Source of the DNA: a virus
Length of the DNA stretch: 64,000 bases
IMG/VR virus record: IMGVR_UViG_3300026078_000018
Strand: one strand, 5' to 3'
Part shown: positions 33,788-39,158 of the stretch, piece after piece
Layout of the letters: each line of letters starts with the position of its first letter
How positions within the stretch are numbered: the stretch's first letter is position 1
Program-made: the position numbers and the translations under genes
The notes under the pieces: model-generated
Databases searched by the model: none
What the model was told of the DNA's origin: nothing
The model's input: only the letters and a program-made list of their open reading frames with translations

Positions 33788-34774
33788 GTGTTTGATGACT
33801 CCTCGTCGCGGCCGGTGGTCGTGCTGACCCAGGTCGACGACCCCACCGCCGACATGGTCATCAGGCACCTCAACGCTGCTGGCGTACCGGTGGTTCGCCT
33901 CGACCCCGCGGACTTCCCCCGCACCCTGTCTCTGTCGGCGCGTATCAGCGCCGGAGGGCACTGGTCGGGGCGGATCACCACCAGCAGCAGGAAGTTCGAT
34001 CCTGCGACCGCGCGTGCTCTGTGGCTGCGCCGTCCGGGCCGTCGCAGTTTCCCAGGCATGGATATTGCGACGGCGAAGTACGCCGAGGCCCAGGCCGAGG
34101 TCGGGCTCGACGGAATCCTGCGCAGCATGGCCGACTGCCTGTACGTCAACCACCCGGCCGCCCACAAGGCGGCCTCAGTGAAGCCGGTACAGCTGGACGC
34201 GGCCTCCCGCGCCGGTTTCGCCATCCCTGACACGCTCATCACCAATGACCCGGCCGACGCGCGGGAGTTCTGCGCAGCCCAGCCCAGCATCCACAAGCCG
34301 CTTGGGCCGTCCCTGTGGCAGCCCGACGGAGATCGCCTGTTCCTGGTGAACGTCAGCACTATGGCAGACCCTGACGGCCTGGATGAGAGTGTTGGTACGA
34401 CCGCGCACCTGTTTCAGGCCCGGGTCCCCAAACAGCACGACGTACGCCTGACCGTGATCGGGGATCGTATGATCCCCGTGGTCATCGACTCCATGGGCGC
34501 ACTGGACTGGCGCACCACCTACGACGGCAACACCTACCGCGTCCTACAGGAGCTGCCCGGCGACATCGAACAGGCCGTGAAATCGTTCATGGCCGAACTG
34601 GGCCTCGTATACGCGGCTTTCGACTTCGCCATCGGATTCGACGAGCGCTGGTGGTTCCTGGAAGCCAACCCCGCGGGGCAGTTCGCATGGCTGGAAGAAC
34701 CGACCGGCTACCCGCTGACCGCGGCGATGGCGGAGTTCCTCGCCCGGACCCCATACCCGCGAGAGACACAGTGA
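33788..34774 (+). CDS. ATP-grasp ribosomal peptide maturase (TgmB / SAV_5884-like)
   Basis: D.TADMVI..L, RLDPADFP, W.RRP, YVNHP...KPVQL, PDTLITNDP, HLFQARVPKQHDVRLTVIG, DWR, FLEANPAGQFAWLE. Confidence 0.9.
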   Translation: MFDDSSSRPVVVLTQVDDPTADMVIRHLNAAGVPVVRLDPADFPRTLSLSARISAGGHWSGRITTSSRKFDPATARALWLRRPGRRSFPGMDIATAKYAEAQAEVGLDGILRSMADCLYVNHPAAHKAASVKPVQLDAASRAGFAIPDTLITNDPADAREFCAAQPSIHKPLGPSLWQPDGDRLFLVNVSTMADPDGLDESVGTTAHLFQARVPKQHDVRLTVIGDRMIPVVIDSMGALDWRTTYDGNTYRVLQELPGDIEQAVKSFMAELGLVYAAFDFAIGFDERWWFLEANPAGQFAWLEEPTGYPLTAAMAEFLARTPYPRETQ

Positions 34775-35067
34775 TCCGGCTGAAGGGTGACCGCCGCCAT
34801 ACCCGTGCGGTGCAGCGGTTGCTGGCGCAGGAGGTCGCCGATGGCCGGATCACCACTACCTCCACCGCGGTCGTCATTGACGACCCTGCGCCGCTGGTGT
34901 TGCTAGAGAAGGCTCTGGATGCCGCCTATCCCAGCTGGCGCGACGATCCGATGCAGTACCAGGTCCTGTTCTCCGGCCCGGTCCGGCGGCGTCCCGACTG
35001 GCTGCTGGTGCTGCATCTGAGAGCGAAGGCCTGCGGGGCCCTGAACGTGGATCCACGGCTGACCTGA
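34771..35067 (+). CDS. hypothetical protein coupled to the ATP-grasp gene
   Basis: GTGA overlap. Confidence 0.55.
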   Translation: MIRLKGDRRHTRAVQRLLAQEVADGRITTTSTAVVIDDPAPLVLLEKALDAAYPSWRDDPMQYQVLFSGPVRRRPDWLLVLHLRAKACGALNVDPRLT

Positions 35068-35121
35068 TGTCATGAAACATGACATGCCTACTTGTGCGTG
35101 TCATGTTTCATGACATAGACT
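35067..35121 (+). promoter_or_regulatory. promoter with a double palindromic operator, copy 1
   Basis: ATGTCATGAAACATGACA-N14-TGTCATGTTTCATGACAT overlapping TTGTGC-N18-TAGACT. Confidence 0.85.
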
Positions 35122-35152
35122 GGTGGAAGACGCCAGCCGCCAGGAGGATGCC

Positions 35153-35767
35153 ATGGCCGGAGGAACCGGGACCACGATGAAGGTCTCCGCCGCGCTGCGC
35201 AGAGCAGGGCTGCCGGTGATCCGCTACGGCATCGGCCGTGGCCTCACGGGCATCTACGTCAGCAACATGAGCCCCACCCGCACCGGCGTGAGCCTGCGAT
35301 ACAGCCAGACCGACCCTGCCGGGCAGCAGGAGGCCAAGACCGCCGACGACATCGAAGCCGTCCTGCGCGCCCACGGATTCCCCTACGCCCGCCACACCAT
35401 CGCCCGGCCCGGCGGCCGCACCGCCTACAGCTTCACCGTCTACGCCACCCGCGAGGACCCGCTGTACCAGGCCCACCTGGCCACGCAGGCGGCCCCGGAG
35501 GCTGCAGGGCAGCCTGAGACCCCCGCCGAACCCGAACAGGCCGCCATCGCCGCCTCCGGCCTGCCGGTGCGCCGCTCCACCCACAAGGACTGGCTCATCG
35601 AACACGACGGCCACCGCGACGCCTACCACATCGAACGCACCGGCGGCAGCTCCCGCGCCCGTTACACGGTCACCACCCGCGGAGGCAGTGGCAGGCACAC
35701 CATCGCCAAGAACCTGCGCGACATGACCGCGGCCCTGGACGCCGTCCAGGCTGACATCGCCAACTGA
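35153..35767 (+). CDS. hypothetical protein
   Basis: AGGAGG RBS after promoter copy 1. Confidence 0.7.
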   Translation: MAGGTGTTMKVSAALRRAGLPVIRYGIGRGLTGIYVSNMSPTRTGVSLRYSQTDPAGQQEAKTADDIEAVLRAHGFPYARHTIARPGGRTAYSFTVYATREDPLYQAHLATQAAPEAAGQPETPAEPEQAAIAASGLPVRRSTHKDWLIEHDGHRDAYHIERTGGSSRARYTVTTRGGSGRHTIAKNLRDMTAALDAVQADIAN

Positions 35768-35780
35768 TCCGGAGGTCACC

Positions 35781-36014
35781 ATGAGCGACATCCGCTACAC
35801 CGTGCACAACCCCCTCGGCAACACGGTCTTCTCCCACGAGGACGAGAACATCGCCCGCGGCGTCGCCCAGCAGCGCGCCAACGACCTCGGCTACTCCGTG
35901 ACCATCGAGCGCCATCAGGACGGCCGTTCGCAGGAGATCGACCGCATCTACCCCGCCAGCAGCGCCCCTCTCTCGCGCCTGTGGGTGCCGGGCTTCGGCG
36001 GGCGCCTGGAGTAG
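35781..36014 (+). CDS. small hypothetical protein (Acr candidate)
   Basis: GGAGG RBS, 77 aa. Confidence 0.65.
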   Translation: MSDIRYTVHNPLGNTVFSHEDENIARGVAQQRANDLGYSVTIERHQDGRSQEIDRIYPASSAPLSRLWVPGFGGRLE

Positions 36015-36027
36015 GTTCTCCGATTTC

Positions 36028-36082
36028 ATGTCATGAAACATGACACGCTCTCTTGTGCGTGTCATGTTTCATGACATAGGAT
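36028..36082 (+). promoter_or_regulatory. promoter with a double palindromic operator, copy 2
   Basis: Same arms as copy 1. TTGTGC-N18-TAGGAT. Confidence 0.85.
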
Positions 36083-36122
36083 GGTTGTAGAAGCTGACCC
36101 GCCAGCAGCGAAGGAGCCTGAC

Positions 36123-36434
36123 ATGGCCGCCGACCCGGAAGCCGCTATCAAGGCCAAGCCGCCCAAGACCGGCCCGCTGTTCTGCCTGGACATCACCGAG
36201 CCCGGTCGCGCCATCGGCTACCTGTTGTTGACTGACCCGGCGCCCGAGGACGACTGGTCCATCTACGGCACCCGCGAGGGCCGCACCTGGACGGTGTGGA
36301 CCGACTCCCACGGCAGCGCTACCGGATCCACCCTGGAGGTTGCTGCCAAACGCTGGGCCCGCCAGTACGGCCTGCCCCACGGCACCGCCACCCTCGGCAA
36401 CGACAACGGCGGCGAGCGCCGCATCAGCTGGTAA
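36123..36434 (+). CDS. small hypothetical protein (Acr candidate)
   Basis: AAGGAG RBS. Confidence 0.65.
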   Translation: MAADPEAAIKAKPPKTGPLFCLDITEPGRAIGYLLLTDPAPEDDWSIYGTREGRTWTVWTDSHGSATGSTLEVAAKRWARQYGLPHGTATLGNDNGGERRISW

Positions 36435-36444
36435 GGAGACGCTC

Positions 36445-37053
36445 ATGAGTGAGCAGGATGGGAGAGCCTCACGCTGGGCCAGCTGGCTCCGAAGCCAACT
36501 GAACCATGCAGGTTGGACAGGCGGAGAACTGATTTCTCGTGCACAGGCGGCCGGTACCCCTTTCAGCAAGAGCACGGTGTCCCGTTGGCTTAACGCACAG
36601 CAGCATCCCGATTCCGAGGTCGTCTTCGATGTGGCGAAGGTCCTCAGGGCCGATCCTCGGGAAGCCTTCGAAGCCATCGGATACAGACATCTGATGGGGC
36701 CTGTTGCGGACAAGATCTGGATCGTTACCAGAACCAACGATGAGTACGGCTTCTCCGTACTTGACGGCGATGACCCCATCACCGCCACTGTCGAGGACGC
36801 CCGCGTGGCCTTCATTGACGCCGTCCGCGGGGCACTGGGCGGCAAGAAGGACTACACCATCGCCTTGGAGGCGATCCCGATCGAGCCGGATCACGCGGTG
36901 ACCTCGGACGGTATCGTCCTCACCTGCCGTCAGGTGTCCTCCGGCCTGCGCGCCGCCAGCCTCAAAGCGCGCCGGGCCGAACTGGAGCAGGAGCTAGCCC
37001 AGATCAACCAGGAGCTGGAGAGGGACGAGAGGGACACCCCATGGAACGCGTGA
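36445..37053 (+). CDS. protein with an N-terminal XRE-type HTH
   Basis: WLRSQL..AGWT..EL......SKSTVSRWL...HP. Confidence 0.7.
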   Translation: MSEQDGRASRWASWLRSQLNHAGWTGGELISRAQAAGTPFSKSTVSRWLNAQQHPDSEVVFDVAKVLRADPREAFEAIGYRHLMGPVADKIWIVTRTNDEYGFSVLDGDDPITATVEDARVAFIDAVRGALGGKKDYTIALEAIPIEPDHAVTSDGIVLTCRQVSSGLRAASLKARRAELEQELAQINQELERDERDTPWNA

Positions 37054-37331
37054 TCGCGATCGACCCGTCGGGCTGCGGCTGCACCGAATGCATGGTGGGC
37101 GAGTACGTCCCCCTCGACCAGGCGACGGCTGAGCAGGTCGTCGACATGCTGGCGGGCAGCGTGCGCAACAACACCTGCCGCGACCTGCGGGTGAGCCTGG
37201 TCTACACCCTCGGCAACGGCCTGGACATGTCCCAGGCGGTGCTGGTGGAGGTGCAGCTGGCCGAGGGGGAGGACGGCTCCCCGCTCGTCTGGACCGTCCC
37301 GCAAGAGGCGGCGAGGGCGCTGACATGGTGA
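37041..37331 (+). CDS. hypothetical protein
   Basis: GCGCTEC..GEYVPL motif. Confidence 0.55.
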   Translation: MERVIAIDPSGCGCTECMVGEYVPLDQATAEQVVDMLAGSVRNNTCRDLRVSLVYTLGNGLDMSQAVLVEVQLAEGEDGSPLVWTVPQEAARALTW

Positions 37332-37413
37332 CCCTCAACGAGGCCGCCGACCGGGCCTGTGTGGCCCCTCAGGACTACCTCATCCCCGTCGCCCTGGAAC
37401 CCCTGGAGACGCC

Positions 37414-38400
37414 ATGACCCTGCGCATCATCCCCACTGAGCCCACCAAGCTGTTCAAGCACTACCGTGGGCAGGACACCATCCAGGATGCCTACATCGAG
37501 CTGGCGCTGCGCGACGAGACGCTACTGGCCGACTATGACGCCGCCGTCGGCGGTGCCGTGCCGGTGGAGGTCCACAATGGCTTCGAGCGCCGCTACCCGA
37601 TCCCGCTGCTGACCGGGCAGGCCGCCGACGCCCTGATGGAGAAGATCCTGCCTCTGGCCCAGGAGATCGTCGAGGACTGGCGGTCGGAGTGGGACGGCAA
37701 CAGCACCGTCGCGATTCTCGGCGAGGACGCCGCGGCGGCGGAGGAGAAGATCGGGGAGATCACCTGCGAGGTCTGTGAAGACTACGACCCGGCCAGCTAC
37801 GTCAGCGTCTGGGATGTCGACGGCGCCTGTCCCGGCAATGAGGTCGAGGCCTTCGGCATCACCGCCGACACCACCGACGAGCGCCTGGCCGAGATCGAGG
37901 AGGAGATCCGGCAGTCCCTGGCCGAGGTCAGCGAATCCCCGGTGGTGATCCTCGACGGGGTCGGCGAGTACCTGGCCGGGCTGCGCCAGGAGCTGCGGGA
38001 CCGGATCGGGCAGATGTCCGCCGCGGAGCTGCGCGCCGCCCGTGACGAGCTCGGGCTGACCGGCAGCTGGGTGGCCGCGTACGTGGGCGTCACCGAGCGC
38101 ACACAGCGACGCTGGGAGGCCGGGAAGCTGGCGGTGCCGTATCTGGTGGCCGAGCGGATGCAGGAGCTCCTGGAGGAGGCTGCGGAGGCCGTGGAGCGCA
38201 AGGCTGCCGAAGCGGATGCGGCATGTGCGACGTATCTGTTGGCGTGGCGGACTGATGAACAGCTGCCGTCAGACCTGCTGGCCACCGGTTACCCGGCTCG
38301 CTGGCACATGCGCATCTCCGAGCGGGTGGTGGCCACGCCGCAGCTCGCCATCCGGGGCGTCCGGCTGTTCTACGCCGACGAGCTCCCCGAGAACCACTGA
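37414..38400 (+). CDS. acidic N-terminal domain fused to an Aca2/DUF1870-like HTH domain
   Basis: From ATG 38014: MSAAELRAARDELGLT..WVAAYVGVTERT.RRWEAGK.AVP..VAERM, matching the Aca2/YdiL layout as recalled. Confidence 0.65.
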   Translation: MTLRIIPTEPTKLFKHYRGQDTIQDAYIELALRDETLLADYDAAVGGAVPVEVHNGFERRYPIPLLTGQAADALMEKILPLAQEIVEDWRSEWDGNSTVAILGEDAAAAEEKIGEITCEVCEDYDPASYVSVWDVDGACPGNEVEAFGITADTTDERLAEIEEEIRQSLAEVSESPVVILDGVGEYLAGLRQELRDRIGQMSAAELRAARDELGLTGSWVAAYVGVTERTQRRWEAGKLAVPYLVAERMQELLEEAAEAVERKAAEADAACATYLLAWRTDEQLPSDLLATGYPARWHMRISERVVATPQLAIRGVRLFYADELPENH

Positions 38401-38468
38401 GAGACCTTCTGCACCGTCGCAGCGGTAGGTTGGCTGCTTCGGTGCAGAAGGTATAGGAGGGGCCTGTT

Positions 38469-38966
38469 TTGGCGAATTTGCGGGTTAACAAGGCCATGGT
38501 GCGGCATGTGCGGGGGCTGCAGAAAGGACTGAAGCTGCGGAGGCTGGAGTACGGGCTGGCGCTGCCGGAGCTGGCCTCGCTGGTGGAGGTCAGCCAGCGC
38601 ACCGTGCTGGACTGGGAGCGGGCCTACGAGCAGCCTGCCATGCTCACCGCGATGCGCTGGGCGGCCGTGCTGGACATGCGGTTCATCATCCGCTCCGCTC
38701 GCAGCGACCACGACTTCACCCCGCTGTCGCAGCCCGGCCAGCAGCTGCCCGCGCCCGAACAGGACTGGCTGAGGCTGTGCGCGCCGCTGAAGCAGCTGCG
38801 GGTGGATCGGGGGCTGTCTCAGACTGAGCTGGGTCTGGTCACCGGTGTGTCCCGGTCCTCTATCCAGCGGTGCGAGGACGGGACGCAGTATCCGCGACTG
38901 CTGCTGCTGACTGCGATGGCCAACCAGTTCGGCTGTGTGCTGGACCTGCGCGAGCAATCCCTCTAG
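38469..38966 (+). CDS. tandem XRE-HTH protein
   Basis: Two HTH_3-like repeats (..SQRTVLDWE..; ..SRSSIQRCE..). Confidence 0.75.
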   Translation: MANLRVNKAMVRHVRGLQKGLKLRRLEYGLALPELASLVEVSQRTVLDWERAYEQPAMLTAMRWAAVLDMRFIIRSARSDHDFTPLSQPGQQLPAPEQDWLRLCAPLKQLRVDRGLSQTELGLVTGVSRSSIQRCEDGTQYPRLLLLTAMANQFGCVLDLREQSL

Positions 38967-39158
38967 GGGAGCTCCTGCAGCTCAAATCGTGCCCCCTCAG
39001 GCAGTTTGAACTCGGCCATCTCGGCATCGGCTTCGGCACGGGCTGCCTCATAGGAGCCCGGAGCATACACGGCTTCCATGATTACTGATCTTCTACTCAA
39101 AGGTGTGAACGTCCTCTGATTCAACCTCTGCAATTCAAGGCGAAAGTAGGATATCCCC

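Follow-up and report, generated by a model that had tools for sequence, protein, structure and literature searches.

The reference system for regulators of the Aca2/YdiL family (PF08965, DUF1870) is the acrIF8-aca2 operon of Pectobacterium phage ZF40, with family structures available under PDB IDs 7VJO, 7VJQ, 7B5J and 8W35. Aca2 of ZF40 represses transcription via an inverted repeat covering the -35/-10 region (site TTCG-N6-CGAA) (PMC6765145). In the crystal structure of its complex with DNA, Arg30, Tyr34 and Arg39 contact bases (PMC8633003), and the role of Arg30 in DNA contact is described in both reports (PMC6765145, PMC8633003). Regulators of this family occur outside anti-CRISPR (acr) loci too (PMC8434428). 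Here we describe a cassette of small genes located between positions 35067 and 38452 of a 64,000-nucleotide (nt) window, the whole stretch of DNA analysed, from the virus record IMGVR_UViG_3300026078_000018. The cassette has two promoters laden with palindromic operators and ends with a gene, open reading frame 6 (ORF6), whose product is predicted to carry an entire Aca2/YdiL domain behind an acidic domain. We propose that these accessory genes are probably kept under negative feedback by ORF6, an Aca2-family repressor predicted to bind the operators and repress both promoters.

The cassette resembles the ZF40 operon in several respects. Its terminal gene codes for a complete Aca2 fold with an equivalent (R229) of the conserved Arg30, an inverted-repeat operator lies over the -35/-10 region with half-site centres about 10 bp apart, there are two operators per promoter, and the context is that of a phage with variable upstream cargo. 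Contrary to ZF40, the Aca2 module is fused behind an acidic domain of 195 amino acids (aa), the operator is of the 7-N3-7 type, both operators are situated upstream of the transcription start, and a structured motif in the 5' untranslated region (UTR) was not found. The promoter/operator unit is moreover duplicated, giving two controlled units, and there is no known acr gene among the cargo. In its regulatory design, which is already known, the cassette follows Aca2-controlled operons; what appears to be new here is a simple code for the specificity of Aca2-type repressors, read from the covariation of operators and recognition helices in related sequences.

An autoregulatory promoter-binding domain joined to a second domain in one chain is known from AcrIF24 (PMC9638941, PMC9001735), AcrIE10 (PMC13530269) and AcrIIA1. 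ORF6 shares this architecture, and in a relative from Embleya (locus L107) its parts are separate adjacent genes. The DNA-binding module of ORF6 is of Aca2 type, unlike the helix-turn-helix (HTH) domain of AcrIF24 or the ribbon-helix-helix domain of AcrIE10, and its second domain lacks similarity to any known Acr. No published fusion of autoregulator and anti-CRISPR that is of Aca2 type and has a partner like PF26929, the label of the acidic domain, was found in the literature searched. The available part of Feussner et al. 2026 names downstream DEAD/DEAH + HA helicases, along with PAPS reductases, as frequent aca2 companions in actinobacterial loci and, as far as that part extends, does not describe an N-terminal PF26929 fusion (PMC13551039). 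Streptomyces relatives of ORF6 fit this pattern, a ResIII/DEAD helicase that bears HA domains coming after them and PAPS reductases being near, while the phage locus differs in lacking such a helicase after ORF6. A search of the phage genome for the HA helicase gave no match, control genomes being equally silent.

Promoter/operator units and the probable regulator ORF6

The virus record is a single one of 139.8 kb with 67% G+C. The locus belongs to an accessory region, 3' of an ATP-grasp cluster and 5' of more HTH and membrane genes, and its order is P1, ORF1, ORF2, P2, ORF3, ORF4, ORF5, possible ORF5b, ORF6 and a strong hairpin. The features that concern its regulation are the following:

35067..35121, + strand: promoter/operator unit P1, with distal operator 35068-35084, -35 box TTGTGC 35092-35097, proximal operator 35099-35115 (filling the 18-nt spacer) and -10 box TAGACT 35116-35121
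36028..36082, + strand: promoter/operator unit P2, with distal operator 36029-36045, -35 box TTGTGC 36053-36058, proximal operator 36060-36076 and -10 box TAGGAT 36077-36082
37414-38400, + strand: ORF6, a two-domain protein of 328 aa
37414..37998, + strand: N-terminal domain of ORF6, residues 1-195, precomputed label PF26929, alpha/beta fold in a confident model
38008..38370, + strand: C-terminal domain of ORF6, residues 199-319, complete Aca2/YdiL (DUF1870) fold as modelled
38404..38452, + strand: terminator-like hairpin directly 3' of the ORF6 stop codon, with 20-nt arms 90% complementary

Four perfect 17-bp palindromes, TGTCATG-N3-CATGACA, begin at 35068, 35099, 36029 and 36060. The chance expectation for this palindrome in the window is 0.17, none of 100 shuffled sequences gave four, and the rest of the 139.8-kb genome holds no exact copy, the next-best site having two mismatches. 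The palindromes lie in a duplicated unit (35067-35133 and 36028-36094; 67 nt, 87% identity), which bears out an earlier note that had reported an element repeated at 35067 and 36028. The inverted arms within each unit, themselves palindromic as that note described, turned out slightly longer than the 18 bp it gave: they measure 21 nt, stand 8 nt apart and are complementary at 95% (P1) or 100% (P2) of positions. Operator centres are separated by 31 bp in each unit, about three helical turns. The sequence of P1 reads TTGTGC, an 18-nt spacer consisting of G and the proximal palindrome, and TAGACT; P2 has the same layout with TAGGAT as its -10 box and with the -35 box exactly kept, so one palindrome does fill the spacer of each promoter, as had been suggested.

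The P1 unit begins right behind the stop codon of the upstream gene. Leaders are short, with 31 nt (P1) and 40 nt (P2) between the -10 box and the start codon. In RNA reading through from P1, the P2 unit would fold, immediately 3' of the ORF2 stop codon, as a perfect hairpin of 21 bp (36015-36125, -48.5 kcal/mol, z -5.8), and because it folds in this way it probably terminates the P1 transcript. Both units may act as terminator, promoter and operator together. A search of IMG/VR with the palindrome returned 89 loci, nearly all of them single chance matches, and the 31-bp paired geometry was present in none. A CRP-like host site was considered as the identity of the palindrome and rejected, since half-site and spacing differ from those of a CRP site.

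The AlphaFold model of ORF6 has a predicted local distance difference test (pLDDT) score of 91.5. Residues 199-319 align with Aca2 of ZF40 (7vjo_B) with a VIA-align Z of 14.0 and a root-mean-square deviation (rmsd) of 2.7 A over 116 of 118 residues; SO3848 (2ox6, Z 13.2) and YdiL (1s4k, Z 12.6) come next, and plain HTH proteins stay below 11. The Foldseek comparison with Aca2 that the earlier note had proposed gave template modelling (TM) scores of 0.62-0.73, normalised to target. The best sequence matches of ORF6 in PDB are Aca2 chains, with E 1e-9 over about 95 residues when a profile of 26 homologs is used. The Pfam profile Aca2_YdiL scores 22.9 bits with the protein and 24.2 bits in a six-frame search of the genome (cut-off 23.8), only profile positions 1-62 being matched, and PF08965 is carried by many homologs 40-47% identical to ORF6. 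As judged from the model, residues 199-319 are the whole Aca2/YdiL domain of ~120 aa, in which the dimerisation subdomain specific to Aca2 comes after the XRE-type HTH, and not an HTH alone. The proposed relationship of this HTH to Aca2/DUF1870 thus holds for the sequence profile as well as for the fold of the full domain. Residues 227-238, TERTQRRWEAGK, are the recognition helix. Within it, R229, R233 and K238 align with Arg30, Tyr34 and Arg39 of ZF40 Aca2, and R229 is nearly invariant across the 26 homologs.

In twelve homologous loci a TTGnnn-N17-19-TAnnnT promoter with a spacer palindrome precedes the ORF6 homolog by 85-990 bp; the two may adjoin directly or be separated by one unrelated gene. 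The palindrome is 7-N3-7 (7-N4-7 in L104) with an A/T-rich centre. A filter combining promoter and palindrome gave 0 stray matches in approximately 57 kb scanned. The 84-kb plasmid NZ_CP108117 has only two occurrences of the palindrome pattern, which is no more frequent there than a control pattern and is therefore not a plasmid-wide operator. Since the same layout recurs before relatives of ORF6, comparison with these loci is taken to support the putative promoter function of P1 and P2. Across relatives the half-site covaries with residues of the recognition helix, and four classes are distinguished:

recognition helix NPRT.(R/V)SW..GR: half-site CACCCTA, 9 loci
recognition helix S.RTVRHWE.GK: half-site GCTTCC(T)A, 2 loci (L091, L104)
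recognition helix DPRSARRYERGT, from the split, stand-alone Aca2-like gene: half-site GGTCCTA, Embleya L107
recognition helix TERTQRRWEAGK: half-site TGTCATG, phage window (ORF6)

The helix positions that differ between the classes are the equivalents of Tyr34 and Arg39. PF26929 genes with another HTH partner have a different operator, TTACCCC-N2-GGGGTAA. Because the operator type follows the DNA-binding module, the palindromes of the phage are assigned to ORF6 and not to ORF4 (the XRE-type HTH protein starting at 36445) or to the product of the gene at 38469. ORF6 is likely, on these comparisons, to be the autorepressor at the palindromes rather than ORF4. All three products had been put forward as candidate binders, and the comparative evidence points to the one starting at 37414, not to the other two.

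Loci of the TTACCCC type (L105, L108, L110, L111 and L113, all from Streptomyces) have their palindrome about 60-120 bp upstream of a stand-alone PF26929 gene, sometimes in two copies. Next come, in this order, a conserved hairpin of the leader (GGGTGTCGGAGG...CCTCCGACACCC), the PF26929 gene, an HTH-like gene of about 175 aa and a ResIII/DEAD+HA helicase. The leader hairpin may be the published Aca2 'actino-motif' or its analogue. Leaders of L001, L102 and L114, measuring 85-200 nt from promoter to ORF6 homolog, share small hairpins such as CTCCGTAAGT.ACTCGGAG, and nothing comparable is present in the short leaders of the phage window.

Taking together the palindromic sites, the geometry of the promoters, the Aca2 fold and the way in which operator and recognition helix covary, we infer binding, repression and their timing as follows. 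P1 and P2 would be sigma-70 promoters of actinomycete type, each with two 17-bp operators, one upstream of the -35 box and one in the -35/-10 spacer. Upon infection both would fire, P1 giving ORF1-ORF2 and P2 giving ORF3-ORF4-ORF5-(5b)-ORF6, with the P2 hairpin as the probable end of the P1 transcript. The last product, ORF6, would dimerise via its Aca2/YdiL domain and bind the operators, its helix 3 (R229, R233, K238) reading each half-site. The bound protein would block RNA polymerase and both units would be shut down. As a speculation, the acidic domain in the fusion may make repression dependent on whether a host target is occupied, comparably to AcrIE10 or AcrIF24.

Genes of the cassette

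Besides ORF6, the + strand of the cassette codes for these products:

35153..35767, + strand: ORF1, 204 aa, basic (isoelectric point, pI, 9.6), function not assigned
35781..36014, + strand: ORF2, 77 aa, function not assigned
36123..36434, + strand: ORF3, 103 aa, function not assigned
36445..37053, + strand: ORF4, 202 aa, XRE-type HTH (residues ~20-73) and a C-terminal part with coiled coil
37041..37331, + strand: ORF5, 96 aa, acidic (pI 4.05), overlapping the ORF4 end by 13 nt
37325..37417, + strand: possible ORF5b, 30 aa, bridging ORF5 and ORF6 with overlapping stop/start codons

By codon position the + strand ORFs look genuine, with a third-position G+C content (GC3) of 0.84-0.96 (ORF4 0.75), and each of them has a Shine-Dalgarno-like sequence or overlapping stop and start codons; the overlap at ORF5b suggests translational coupling. 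The close spacing or overlap of the genes and the strong hairpin after ORF6 (-39.8 kcal/mol, z -5.2 in RNA folding) support an operon structure. A rhizosphere metatranscriptome holds contigs 100% identical to several parts of 34600-39000; as it belongs to a separate study, the phage, or an identical one, is present in at least two studies. One of these contigs (35474-35875) crosses the ORF1/ORF2 junction. The contigs are assembled, DNA carry-over is possible and gaps in their coverage carry no meaning, so they constitute weak evidence, compatible with co-transcription of ORF1 and ORF2.

The genes between the promoters are near-orphans, as had been stated from the sequence alone: few or no homologs were found. 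ORF1 has 6 homologs, all metagenomic, which share the highly conserved N-terminus MAGG(T/N)GTTMKVSAALR. One of them is on a 40,235-bp contig, and a 72% homolog of ORF6 is also on a 40,235-bp contig. The 344-aa homolog P0055 contains an internal duplication of the N-terminal module (~100 aa) of ORF1, from which it follows that ORF1 is made of two separable modules. Sequence comparison shows no paralogy between ORF1 and either ORF2 or ORF3, and ORF1 has no match in Pfam, PHROGs, PADLOC, NCBIfam or PDB. Searches by tblastn of GenBank phages with ORF1, ORF2, ORF3 and ORF4 and of PLSDB plasmids with ORF3 gave no match. Nothing was retrieved by metagenome scans with ORF6 and the ORF1 alignment or by a search of IMG/VR with the latter. 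PDB sequence searches with ORF1, ORF4, ORF9 and the ORF5 family returned nothing useful, and ESM Atlas look-ups with ORF1 and the N-terminal domain of ORF6 were uninformative.

ORF4 is indeed the XRE-type HTH protein that had been noticed at 36445, and it matches PHROG 3949, a 'transcriptional repressor' family (E 3e-10). Only two homologs of it were found. Its GC3 of 0.75 against 0.90-0.96 in the adjoining genes suggests that the XRE gene entered the operon more recently. Residues 1-45 of ORF5 (37041-37180) form a widespread, unnamed Cys-containing module with the motif DP.GCGC.EC..G, in which D8, P9, C12, C17 and G20 are invariant. It occurs in 289 protein clusters, alone or fused to PadR or dNMP kinase, with 14 stretches in one 1133-aa protein, and also in Streptomyces jumbo phages; neither a Pfam family nor a relative of solved structure exists for it. 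Right after the ORF6 hairpin, a gene with a TTG start (38469-38966) codes for a protein of 165 aa that contains a pair of XRE-type HTH motifs (RstR/DicA-like matches), and no 17-bp palindrome precedes it.

The acidic domain of ORF6 and the anti-defence question

The N-terminal half of the 37414 product had been described as very acidic, and residues 1-195 do have a pI of 4.09 with 42 D+E against 14 K+R. Modelled alone, the domain reaches a pLDDT of 91.9 and a predicted TM score of 0.83. No credible neighbour was found in PDB (best Foldseek E 0.64, best VIA-align Z 4.4), which does not by itself prove a new fold. All 53 homologs carry the PF26929 label; 26/53 have the same fusion, while 27/53 lack the Aca2 part, some of the latter having a different short C-terminal HTH or an N-terminal HTH. 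PF26929 is joined to at least four different DNA-binding modules, at either protein end, and it contains the strongly conserved polar motifs GFERRY.IP and ITADTTD.RL. Many homologs are stand-alone proteins of about 200 aa whose genes precede a separate gene for a product of about 175 aa containing an HTH-like motif, after which comes a ResIII/DEAD helicase that bears HA domains. In Embleya L107, the PF26929 protein precedes a stand-alone Aca2-like protein, 34% identical to the C-terminal domain of ORF6 (E 3e-15). A putative autoregulatory domain and a separable second domain, which also occur as adjacent genes, are thus both found in ORF6, as in bifunctional fusions.

Relatives of ORF6 come from Streptomyces, Kitasatospora, Embleya and Micromonospora. 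Most of their contigs are plasmids of 80-100 kb, and some of these are listed as complete viruses in IMG/VR. On the Streptomyces plasmids they adjoin DnaB-type and ResIII/HA helicases and replication-type genes, with PAPS reductases nearby. No other ORF of the window was found beside the plasmid homologs of ORF6, and the cargo is wholly different between phage and plasmids.

The discovery of acr genes makes use of regulators that stay constant while their cargo changes, though this pattern is no test of function. The layout of acr-aca loci is also found here, with an aca gene of a known family as the last one of a short operon that belongs to a mobile element and lies behind an inverted-repeat promoter. 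An anti-defence role of the cargo, argued through guilt by association, is quite possible while falling short of probable, and an anti-CRISPR role specifically is rather unlikely. A new Acr would be expected to resemble no known protein, and the lack of similarity is not decisive in either direction. The 174-aa partner protein of a Streptomyces homolog matched AcrIE10 with E 0.9, which is not significant. To our knowledge, no anti-CRISPR or anti-defence proteins have been characterised for Streptomyces-type actinomycetes.

A more far-reaching possibility, which we regard as doubtful, is that PF26929 represents a new, structurally unprecedented family of anti-defence effectors with a wide distribution on Streptomyces plasmids, phage-plasmids and actinophages. 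The Aca2 fusion would then be a target-responsive switch and ORF1-3 and ORF5 further inhibitors, and together with the CRISPR-mimic mini-arrays of the phage they would provide layered immune suppression. The suggestion of the earlier note that cassette and mini-arrays manipulate host CRISPR in a two-pronged way is a conjecture. One may speculate that in such a switch the N-terminal domain binds a host defence protein, upon which operator binding loosens and more inhibitor is made when needed, as for AcrIE10.

Competing interpretations and significance

Several observations weigh against the proposed feedback cassette or against a defence function of its cargo. A scan with the E. coli consensus calls neither P1 nor P2, whose boxes fit only the looser actinomycete pattern. 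The leaders are short and unstructured, the P1 leader folding no better than shuffled sequences (z 0.34) and Rfam giving only spurious hairpin matches at the locus; the structured 5' UTR motif, usual at Aca2 loci if not universal, is absent from P1 and P2, and the phage locus thus shows no sign of the control at RNA level that is usual for Aca2. Conservation of the operator among close relatives (those with 72% and 68% ORF6 homologs) is no more than hinted at, by one ORF1 homolog, P0059, called with an N-terminal extension that starts MFHE, where translation across the proximal operator here gives MFHD. Further candidates for operator binding are ORF4, an XRE HTH protein of the same operon, and the double-HTH protein at 38469. 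The cargo ORFs and the acidic half have no match to anti-defence families in Pfam, PHROGs, PADLOC, NCBIfam or PDB, solved Acr structures included. As the ORF6 family adjoins helicase and replication-type genes on Streptomyces plasmids, its function may instead lie in the maintenance of plasmids or phages.

That ORF4 is the palindrome-binding repressor, similar to Cro or CI, and ORF6 is cargo or a regulator of something else is compatible with the HTH and repressor-family match of ORF4 and with its place within the P2 operon; moreover, one ORF4 homolog and one ORF1 homolog are each on a 7,613-bp contig, probably the same one. We consider it unlikely, because operator geometry and half-site track the ORF6-type HTH in 12 loci without an ORF4 homolog, because the low GC3 of ORF4 suggests later insertion, and because no more than two ORF4 homologs are known. 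The 50-bp elements could also be primarily RNA hairpins for termination or processing, or sites of host factors, instead of phage-repressor sites. Each unit is a hairpin with 21-nt arms directly behind a stop codon (35067, 36014), and the P2 hairpin is the strong one given above. A terminator, however, needs no 17-bp sub-palindromes, exactly conserved -35 box or spacer placement, homologous loci have single spacer palindromes with no long hairpin, and the hairpin and operator roles are compatible with each other; this explanation is very unlikely. Most improbable is that ORF6 is an Xre antitoxin of the MbcA/NatR/HigA2 kind, fused or paired with a toxic partner. There are weak sequence and fold matches to MbcA, HigA2 and NatR, and BFVD neighbours are annotated 'antitoxin', but NatR fits poorly (TM 0.37-0.41, rmsd above 8 A), the matches to HigA2 cover the HTH only, whereas Aca2, YdiL and SO3848 match the whole C-terminal domain, and no toxin families were detected in the neighbourhood.

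The regulatory role of ORF6 is retained if it is a one-component regulator whose PF26929 domain senses a host protein or small molecule, the cassette being an early, host-takeover or maintenance module with no defence link. Being combined with several DNA-binding modules, at one end or the other, PF26929 behaves as domains of sensor-output architectures typically do, its two polar motifs suggest a specific binding or catalytic site, and the DnaB-type and ResIII/HA helicases of the plasmid context fit as well. Against this, many PF26929 proteins stand alone before a separate regulator gene, an acr-aca-like layout, and the complete difference of cargo round the conserved regulator between phage and plasmids is a hallmark used for finding anti-defence genes. 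A purely sensory role without defence link is conceivable, if rather doubtful.

Phages and plasmids of Streptomyces-type actinomycetes matter for the genetics of antibiotic producers. With its relatives on plasmids, the locus gives access to a defined regulator, to predicted operators that fall into four specificity classes and to a small number of candidate effectors. Among the latter is a domain of 195 aa that is modelled confidently and has no known fold neighbour. The main leads opened are this acidic PF26929 domain and an operator code accessible to swaps of one or two residues. Even if the cargo is not anti-defence, the cassette provides a clean example of a conserved autorepressor module moving among very different cargos.

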